Origin: a virus
Taxonomy: Duplodnaviria; Heunggongvirae; Uroviricota; Caudoviricetes
Virus record (IMG/VR): IMGVR_UViG_2534681774_000019
Span: 1 to 21,213 of that record
Length of the DNA stretch: 21,213 nt
Direction: 5' to 3' (one strand)
Part shown: piece by piece, positions 6,703-7,573 of the stretch
Position numbering within the stretch: the first letter of the stretch is position 1
Layout of the letters: the number at the start of each line of letters is the position of its first letter
Translations under genes and position numbers: made by a program
The notes under the pieces: model-generated
What the model was told of the DNA's origin: nothing
Database searches by the model: none
What the model saw: the letters and a program-made list of their open reading frames with translations, nothing else

Positions 6703-6805
6703 GGGATGATACCTCAGTTACGAACTTTGTTTTATGGTAACTAAGGTATCAAGGTGTGGCAAGTGATTTTTGATACTTTGGTTTCTTTTTGTGTTTTGTG
6801 TCTGG
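6703..6805. promoter_or_regulatory. left operator/promoter region (OL-like)
   Basis: Contains TTGATACTTTGG (6770..6781), identical to a 12-mer in the right operator region, plus inverted GTATCAA (6746..6752). Confidence 0.45.
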
Positions 6806-7462
6806 TCAGAAAATATCCCACCTGGCATCAACCACAACACCTACTATTTCGCAATCATTGTCCATTTCTATGATTGGATATTGTGGATTAAGGGGCTTTA
6901 GAAACGCCTTTCCCATGTCAGAAATATATTTTTTGAATGTTGCTTCATTGGTAGATTTTTTTCTGGCGATGACGTAACACCCTGAAAAAACTTCTTTATC
7001 TGGGTTGACAAGGATCGACATTCCTTCAGGAAATGTTATTCCTACGGGCGAAGTCATTGAGTCTCCGTGCACTTCCAGCCAGAACCCCCTCTCACCAGCG
7101 TATTTTACAGAATGCCTCCAATTATCCTGATCATACATGTTGTAGTCATCACCAGAAGTTGCGAATAATCCTGCCTGAACCCAGTTAATTACAGGGTAAG
7201 AGTGTGCTGTGTCTCTCTGTGGGCAGCTCTTAACATTATTTTCCCAATGCTTATCTTTTTCATCTCCGTTCTGAAGCCACTGCGGTGAACACCGCAGTGC
7301 AGCTGCAACTTTAAAAAGGGTGTCACCGTTGAAACTTTTTGTAAGGCCTTGCTCGGCTTTACTGATTGCAACTCTGGTGATCCCAGCTTTTTTAGCCAAC
7401 GCATCTTGTGTTAACCCAGCTTTTTGCCGTGCGTTGATGAGACGTTCACCTAAAGACTTCAT
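6806..7462 (-). CDS. cI: cI-like prophage repressor (N-terminal HTH, C-terminal LexA/S24 autopeptidase domain)
   Basis: ORF track 6806..7537 trimmed to ATG 7462 with GAGAGGAGAAG RBS. HTH LTQDALAKKAGITRVAISKAEQG; S24 motifs GDSM and downstream ARKK; candidate Ala-Gly cleavage site (VQAGLF). Confidence 0.85.
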   Translation of the reverse strand: MKSLGERLINARQKAGLTQDALAKKAGITRVAISKAEQGLTKSFNGDTLFKVAAALRCSPQWLQNGDEKDKHWENNVKSCPQRDTAHSYPVINWVQAGLFATSGDDYNMYDQDNWRHSVKYAGERGFWLEVHGDSMTSPVGITFPEGMSILVNPDKEVFSGCYVIARKKSTNEATFKKYISDMGKAFLKPLNPQYPIIEMDNDCEIVGVVVDARWDIF

Positions 7463-7573
7463 TTTTCTTCTCCTCTCATGGCTGTTGATACTAAAGTAAC
7501 AGAATTTCTTGATACTTTGGATTCCTGTGGTTAACATCGTTGAATAACAAAGTATCTGGTGTGAGACTAAAGA
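7463..7573. promoter_or_regulatory. right operator/promoter region (OR-like) between divergent repressor and rightward operon
   Basis: TTGATAC at 7485..7491 and 7509..7515 (the latter within TTGATACTTTGG 7509..7520) and inverted CAAAGTATC 7548..7556. Candidate rightward promoter -35 TTGATA (7509..7514) / -10 TAACAT (7532..7537). Confidence 0.5.

Follow-up and report, generated by a model that had tools for sequence, protein, structure and literature searches.

Phage lambda carries cI and cro as divergent genes at a tripartite right operator (OR), with a tripartite left operator (OL) across cI, and its 17-bp operators pair a consensus half with a non-consensus half. In phage P22 the operators are 18 bp long and of 7-4-7 layout, with an A/T-rich central 4 bp; three of them lie to either side of the repressor gene, and OL is found just past that gene (38 bp), with no rex genes between. 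These arrangements recur in the locus described here, where the predicted operators are of 18 bp, as in P22, rather than of 17 bp, as in lambda. The nearest named phage is the Stx2e phage phiP27 (NC_003356), which shows 95.5% nucleotide identity across the region and has, at its genes L10-L12, the same immunity type with the same six sites, although it has one more gene, on the reverse strand between cro and Rha/Ant, that is not present here. N, cII and cIII have been reported as missing from P27, and the P27 cro has been listed as a separate variant (PMC3430580). A literature search, beyond the reach of which lay the original phiP27 paper, found no published description of these operators, and in the records of phiP27 and STEC prophages the annotations of the region are generic only ('putative lambda repressor', 'helix-turn-helix protein', 'hypothetical').

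The window, that is, the whole stretch of 21,213 nucleotides that was analysed (IMG/VR record IMGVR_UViG_2534681774_000019), is an E. coli prophage with phiP27-type immunity. Over positions 6100-7900 it shows 100% identity to a prophage in the chromosome of E. coli O111:H2 strain 12A, where the insertion adjoins mlrA; of 5,426 complete E. coli genomes, at least 168 contain at least 80% of this 6100-7900 stretch. Several Stx1a and Stx2a prophages from STEC are about 86% identical to the region. The first-pass annotation had read this part of the window as an immunity region, and our results support that reading, since a CI-type repressor gene was found with a control region on either side; the repressor and cro genes are divergent with a short control region between them, as in a lambdoid immC. 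We conclude that a lambdoid E. coli prophage of the phiP27 immunity type very probably has its central switch (immC) here, with six predicted CI/C2-type operators (Table 1). The cI stop lies at 6806 and no gene separates cI from the left control region. The absence of rexAB, pointed out earlier as a departure from lambda, is real, but it is not unusual and does not distinguish this locus, because the OL block of P22 also lies 38 bp past c2 with no rex or other gene intervening.

Table 1. Genes, predicted promoters and predicted operators of the immunity region (window coordinates).
Feature	Position	Strand	Sequence or product	Remarks
First PL-operon gene	6199-6702	-	167-aa HTH_3 protein	Pfam HTH_3 at residues 72-123
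OL-C (left operator 3)	6706-6723	+	ATGATAC-CTCA-GTTACGA	Predicted; matches GATACNNNNGWWWC; 16/18 columns invariant in six relatives
OL-B (left operator 1)	6735-6752	-	TTGATAC-CTTA-GTTACCA	Predicted; best position-weight score in window; 18/18 columns invariant
PL	6762 to 6734	-	TTGCCA-17-TACCAT	Predicted; 9/12 in consensus scan
OL-A (left operator 2)	6770-6787	+	TTGATAC-TTTG-GTTTCTT	Predicted; includes left 12-mer
cI-type repressor gene	6806-7462	-	218 aa	HTH_3 and S24 autopeptidase domains (Pfam)
OR-A (right operator 3, nearest cI)	7485-7502	+	TTGATAC-TAAA-GTAACAG	Predicted; 15/18 columns invariant
PRM, best candidate	7515 to 7488	-	GTATCA-16-TAGTAT	Weak candidate; 7/12 in relaxed hexamer scan
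OR-B (right operator 2)	7509-7526	+	TTGATAC-TTTG-GATTCCT	Predicted; includes right 12-mer
PR	7509-7537	+	TTGATA-17-TAACAT	Predicted; 9/12 in consensus scan; hexamers largely conserved
OR-C (right operator 1)	7541-7558	-	CAGATAC-TTTG-TTATTCA	Predicted; over predicted PR start region
cro-like gene	7574-7801	+	75 aa	First gene past PR; Cro fold, all-alpha

The start of the repressor gene called in the first pass is the same as the one given in RefSeq for the identical E. coli locus. Its ATG at 7462 is preceded by a GGAGAAG Shine-Dalgarno sequence, with a 22-nt cI leader; a longer open reading frame, up to 7537, was rejected as the repressor, a relative having a 1-nt indel just upstream of the 7462 ATG. 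The protein combines an N-terminal HTH with a C-terminal S24 domain that has the Ala-Gly cleavage site and the Ser/Lys pair of S24 phage repressors. The HTH_3 domain (residues 10-63, E 1.7e-14, Pfam) matches the N-terminal domains of P22 C2, 434 Cro and 434 repressor in the PDB, and Peptidase_S24 was found at residues 90-211 (E 3e-22, Pfam). The homology to lambda CI is that of the C-terminal domain, which aligns with E values of about 1e-31 to 1e-34 and matches at VQAG, G(D/N)SM and TFKK, whereas at its N-terminus the protein has a domain of the 434/P22 HTH_3 type. The S24 cleavage site Ala97-Gly98 (VQA97-G98) and the dyad of Ser135 (GDS135M) and Lys177 (TFK177K) are invariant in relatives, and we take the aligned positions in lambda CI to be A111-G112, S149 and K192. 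Identity to P22 C2 is 44% over 211 aa, while five relatives have repressors that are 94-98% identical, with the CI of phiP27 at 98%.

An identical 12-mer on both sides of the repressor gene had drawn attention to the region, and TTGATACTTTGG was indeed found at 6770-6781 (+) and 7509-7520 (+), the only exact copies in the window. By our own estimate, about 0.001 exact 12-mers would be expected by chance to be common to the 103-bp and 111-bp regions on either strand; a search that allowed up to 2 mismatches gave 3 matches against 1.78 expected, which is uninformative taken alone. In 43 loci, of which the identical one from E. coli O111:H2 was covered over 41.8 kb, TTGATACTTTGG is confined to immunity regions. 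The window has 9 copies of the heptamer TTGATAC (2.15 expected), a count reached in 0 of 100 shuffles, and the two intergenic regions, 214 bp in all, hold 4 of the 9: besides the copies that open the 12-mers at 6770 (+) and 7509 (+), the further direct and inverted TTGATAC / GTATCAA copies noticed earlier are present in the repressor flanks at 7485 (+) and 6746-6752 (-). Beyond the immunity region there are 5 heptamers where about 2 would be expected, which is not remarkable. A third TTGATAC that had been singled out near the repeats of the replication gene does exist at 10711-10717, but we rejected it as a third operator: it is a lone half, followed by AAATACAGAGA with no second half-site, and its position-weight score is below the top 15 positions. 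Its presence there is probably due to chance, and the neighbouring repeats are of another motif, TACAGAGATTAC, which occurs twice.

The claim that these repeats define the operator half-site of this immunity type stands in part. TTGATAC is the strong half of the likely operators, but the identical 12-mer is not the functional unit, since its left copy varies among relatives while the core is kept. The left copy reads CTGATACTTTGG in phiP27, TTGATACTATCG in Stx1_14040 and TTGATACTAAAG in L109, whereas the right copy is invariant in all close relatives and has one base changed in L109 (TTTG to TTTA). When all GATAC or GTATC in both intergenic regions were listed, six sites could be aligned in one register, and the conserved unit proved to be an 18-bp 7-4-7 pseudo-palindrome, TTGATAC-N4-GTATCAA, present in six copies, three left and three right of the repressor gene. 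The TTGATAC motif thus marks six predicted repressor binding sites. Each has a strong half with an invariant GATAC and a degenerate half four bases off, the sites occur in both orientations around a fixed 5-4-5 core, and all six share (T)GATAC-N4-G..(A/T)C. OL-C and OR-C are without an exact TTGATAC. The symmetric consensus is best approached by OR-A, which agrees with it at 12 of 14 half-site positions, and OR-C is the poorest match.

The pattern GATACNNNNGWWWC, composed after the sites had been seen, has 5 matches in the window against 0.16 expected, none of them outside the two intergenic regions. When the six sites were turned into a position-weight matrix, they came out as the top six positions in the window, and in leave-one-out scans every site ranked between 3 and 26 of 42,392 positions. 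The second halves are degenerate (GTTAC, GTAAC, GATTC, GTTTC, TTATT), and for this reason OR-C and OR-A were weak in the leave-one-out scans (ranks 26 and 16). The position-weight scan of the window for further operators gave a sole near-match at 2240-2257, which has no GATAC half and a score of 14.9 that is reached by about 9% of random windows.

A consensus scan returned one good leftward promoter (PL) and one good rightward promoter (PR), overlapping OL-B and OR-B, respectively. As is typical of lambdoid immunity regions, multiple related pseudo-palindromic sites are therefore predicted at OR and OL, overlapping the predicted PR and PL. On the left side PL, OL1 and OL2 have a register that agrees with P22 base pair for base pair. 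The operator covering PL, here OL-B, which covers the -10 and the spacer, starts in both phages at 1 bp from the low promoter end; the second operator, here OL-A, is separated by a 7-bp gap from the -35, upstream of which it lies; and the two are 35 bp apart, centre to centre. The -35 of PL is invariant in the six-relative alignment, with single positions varying in a few IMG/VR relatives. OL-C is positioned in the transcribed PL leader, overlapping the Shine-Dalgarno sequence GAGG of the leftward gene. On the right side, the -35 of PR is formed by the first six bases of OR-B, which is 24 bp from OR-A and 32 bp from OR-C (centre to centre). On both sides taken together the operator spacings are 24, 32, 35 and 29 bp. 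PRM may be located at 7488-7515, a weak candidate that would have its -10 inside OR-A and its -35 inside OR-B, roughly as the annotated PRM of P22 is placed relative to OR3 and OR2.

Other likenesses to P22 are the spacing of OR3 and OR2 (25 bp in P22, 24 bp here) and the all-alpha fold of Cro, which is shared by the Cro-like protein of this locus. The specificity, however, is different. P22 has the half-site ATTTAAG and the recognition helix SNVAISQWE, compared with TTGATAC and TRVAISKAE here; the half-site of this locus does not follow the P22 form ANTNAAG, and the helix has R, K and A in place of N, Q and W. With the same architecture and a different specificity, this is not P22 immunity. 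There are also differences in layout. The site at the OR1 position lies 32 bp from OR2 and downstream of the -10, whereas in P22 this distance is 23 bp, and the third OL site is in the leader downstream of PL, while that of P22 is upstream, beside the repressor gene. Here cI has a leader and a strong Shine-Dalgarno sequence, unlike the nearly leaderless RM transcript of P22, and no hairpin follows the repressor gene. The first gene of the PL operon encodes an HTH protein, in place of the N analogue, gene 24, that P22 has there and of the N antiterminator with nut sites that comes first in lambdoid phages; no N homologue was found at the PL-proximal position. The missing N concerns the early-left operon and not the operator system. 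Compared with lambda, the best palindrome is OR-A, the operator nearest cI, which is the opposite of the lambda affinity order. Since OR-A is the best palindrome and the PRM candidate matches at only 7 of 12 positions, the logic of the switch may differ from those of lambda and P22.

OL-B and OL-C together form a 15-bp inverted repeat, which gives a stable hairpin on the leftward RNA. It is conceivable, though in our judgement unlikely, that part of the pattern has been selected at the RNA level, the hairpin explaining a mutual likeness of OL-B and OL-C that goes beyond the operator consensus. Folding of the minus-strand RNA from 6690-6830 gives z = -3.7 and a 15-bp stem whose 3' arm holds the Shine-Dalgarno sequence of the leftward gene, the terminator-like hairpin found between cI and OL in P22-like and Serratia relatives is absent here, and the two variable stem positions change to G-U only, on the leftward strand. 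Against this, no compensatory change was seen among relatives, with 12 of 15 pairs invariant and shuffles equal to the observed values; in two pairs the change is to G-U, and a pair is broken in one sequence. Both arms are constrained as operators anyway, and an RNA role would supplement the operator explanation and not replace it. The predicted PL start falls between the two arms of the hairpin. A further and rather speculative suggestion, to which we give little weight, is that OL-B and OL-C double as operators and as arms of a promoter-dependent translational gate on the leftward HTH gene. Read-through of cI maintenance transcripts, in which no terminator intervenes, would carry both arms and bury the leftward ribosome-binding site, while transcripts started at PL would begin between the arms and leave that site open. 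Such a gate would resemble lambda sib retroregulation in spirit, but would be made of operator DNA. If true, it would be a gate in a lambdoid phage without N, with a third OL operator in the leader.

Conservation among relatives follows the predicted operators. In six relatives, 88 of 108 positions in the sites are invariant (81%), compared with 55 of 106 (52%) in the remaining intergenic DNA, a remainder that includes the promoter hexamers and the ribosome-binding sites (Fisher p=5e-6). These relatives are close, most having a CI more than 94% identical, and the footprint has limited power for that reason; most of the weight falls on L109 and the Serratia locus. Since TTGATA is also a good -35 hexamer, OR-B owes some of its conservation to PR. 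The 66 IMG/VR loci have 23 distinct OR and 27 distinct OL variants, and the sites are kept in all of them. L109, whose CI is 86% identical and has the same recognition helix, retains all six sites although its spacers and flanks have heavily diverged. Its OL-A is a perfect palindrome, GATAC-TAAA-GTATC, and its OR-C is TGGACGC-TAAA-GTATCAA. In Stx1_14040, OR-C has its strong half on the opposite side (GGATAC-TTAA-GTGTC), a switch that is as expected of a symmetric dimer site. The letters of OR-C thus differ in both Stx1_14040 and L109, and a site is kept at this position despite the changes.

In a comparison of P22-like, Serratia and phiP27-type loci, half-site and recognition helix vary in step, whereas the geometry is constant. 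P22 and P22-like loci have the helix SN(V/A)AISQWE (SHVAISQWE in L119) and sites of the form TTAAG-N4-CTTAA. A Serratia prophage (L007/L111), with a repressor that is 51% identical, has the helix SRMAISKIE and four TAAAC-N4-GTTTA-type sites, all flanking the repressor gene, against 0.15 expected. The phiP27 type has TRVAISKAE and GATAC-N4-GTATC. This co-variation bears on which protein reads the sites. The leftward 167-aa protein has an HTH_3 domain of its own and matches phrog_4739 and phrog_4836, the latter a 'CII-like regulator' family, and Cro proteins usually share operators with CI, so that Cro binding is expected regardless; it could be argued, then, that the sites are read by the leftward protein, or by Cro alone, rather than by the CI-type repressor. 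We regard this as very unlikely, since the half-site tracks the CI recognition helix in all three kinds of loci, and sites that flank cI and overlap PL and PR form the classic layout of a repressor. Phage PhiR49_2 also speaks against it: over the HTH half (about 100 aa) its leftward protein shows 1 substitution only, but its cI is different, and no GATAC-N4-GWWWC site was found there, CTTGAT-type repeats being present instead. The sites therefore follow cI, and the neighbouring HTH protein was ruled out as the binder. That the repeats are mainly promoter elements (a TTGATA -35 and a GATACT that is -10-like), the identical 12-mer reflecting two similar promoters, is scarcely credible, for although the best PR candidate has TTGATA at 7509-7514 as its -35 and GATACT matches TATAAT at 4 of 6 positions in several relaxed-scan hits, only 1 of the 6 sites coincides with a -35, the left 12-mer (6770, +) has no -10 partner and is directed into the 3' end of cI, PL uses another -35 (TTGCCA) set between two sites, and neither the occurrence of the fixed core in both orientations nor the perfect palindrome of L109 fits such elements.

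Taking the six sites as operators of the CI-type repressor, the switch may be pictured as follows. Dimers of the CI/C2-type repressor would bind the six 18-bp operators in OR (7485-7558) and OL (6706-6787). Occupation of OR-B and OR-C would block PR, and occupation of OL-B, together with OL-A and OL-C, would block PL; with PR and PL shut, the prophage would be silent and the cell would have immunity against phages sharing these operators. In lytic growth, the Cro-fold protein expressed from PR would be expected to read, or compete for, the same sites. During the SOS response, RecA-stimulated self-cleavage at Ala97-Gly98 would remove the repressor. An order of occupancy, cooperativity and looping between OL and OR may also be part of this picture, as we infer from the sequence.

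Here, we described a predicted operator specificity that, as far as we could find, was previously undescribed, in a kind of system that is very well known, the switch of lambda and P22 style; no new kind of mechanism is revealed. The series formed by P22, Serratia and phiP27-type loci presents an identical scaffold in which three recognition-helix residues and the half-site change together. With the operator consensus and the map of sites, immunity groups become predictable from sequence, and the map helps in the design of reporter and footprint experiments and in comparisons of specificity between members of a single family. The immunity type is found in those same genomes, at least 168 of the 5,426, and in several Shiga-toxin phages (Stx1a, Stx2a, Stx2e), in which the affinity of repressor for operator governs the ease of prophage induction and therefore the amount of toxin released.

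The gene at 6199-6702 (-), the first of the operon read from the predicted leftward early promoter PL, is mosaic. The N-terminal ~65 aa of its product are associated with the phiP27 immunity type, while the phage PhiR49_2, which has a different cI, carries a nearly identical version of the C-terminal HTH half. The C-terminal tail is variable among relatives, with forms of 138, 149, 167 and 216 aa, and a conserved segment of the gene (6330-6489) is found again in many prophages under a DicA-like annotation.

Directly upstream of this gene, OL-B and OL-C, two of the predicted operators on the left side of cI, together make a 15-bp inverted repeat (6706-6752) that forms a hairpin on the minus-strand (leftward) RNA. 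In transcripts arriving from cI this hairpin would mask the SD of the 6199-6702 gene, and in those started at PL it would not. No compensatory changes in the stem were found among the relatives. Unlike the P22-like and Serratia relatives (L043 700-713, L111 and L112-L119), in which a GC-rich hairpin lies directly after the repressor gene, the phiP27 type has no terminator-like hairpin between the cI stop and OL (6703-6805).

On the other side of cI, the Cro-fold protein encoded at 7574-7801 (+) belongs to the phrog_4749 family, for which there is no Pfam or NCBIfam model. Its homologues come from Klebsiella, Yersinia, Providencia, Photorhabdus, Xenorhabdus and Salmonella, among others. The loop that joins helix 2 of the protein to the predicted recognition helix carries a basic insertion (P..G..R), which is invariant. 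Further right, the isrK and C4 antisense RNA matches (see the table) both fall within ORF 8614-9468, in the 5' part of the gene, whose product carries Ash and Phage_pRha domains. The pair looks like an antirepressor control module of the P1/P7 immI type or the Gifsy isrK-anrP type, and it is possible that 8671-8859 constitutes a second immunity region ~1.1 kb to the right of OR, the right control region.

RNA genes and repeats outside the immunity region
Feature	Position	Strand	Remarks
isrK (RF01394)	8671-8747	+	Rfam match, 62 bits
C4 antisense RNA (RF01695)	8772-8859	+	Rfam match, 82 bits
83% copy of TACAGAGATTAC	at 10646		within gene 10173-11165
ACGT(T/C)A(A/T)AACGGAACA, two copies	10656, 10679		within gene 10173-11165
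TACAGAGATTAC, perfect tandem	10721-10744		within gene 10173-11165
Three tRNA genes	17368-17614	+	
STnc100 sRNA	17693-17883	+	match, 138 bits; after the three tRNA genes

The repeats at 10646-10744 are possibly origin iterons, and their motif bears no relation to TTGATAC. The tRNA/STnc100 stretch (17368-17883, +) lies downstream of a DNA methyltransferase-like ORF; in Stx phages the equivalent position holds tRNAs and toxin genes. Outside the immunity region, the position-weight scan scores highest (14.9, a value that ~9% of random windows reach) at an operator-like sequence within ORF 1919-2680, AGATAAC-TGAA-GTAACAG (2240-2257). This sequence lacks a GATAC half, and a single TTGATAC is located 26 bp from it, at 2283-2289.

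Among the relatives, the prophage of Serratia sp. Ag1 (locus L007) encodes a repressor 51% identical to the one described here, flanked by four sites of the TAAAC-N4-GTTTA type (L007 1405-1474 and 2216-2263); one of the four combines the two types as a GATAC/GTTTA hybrid. The L007 sites appear to represent a further undescribed immunity specificity built on the same scaffold as the phiP27 type.
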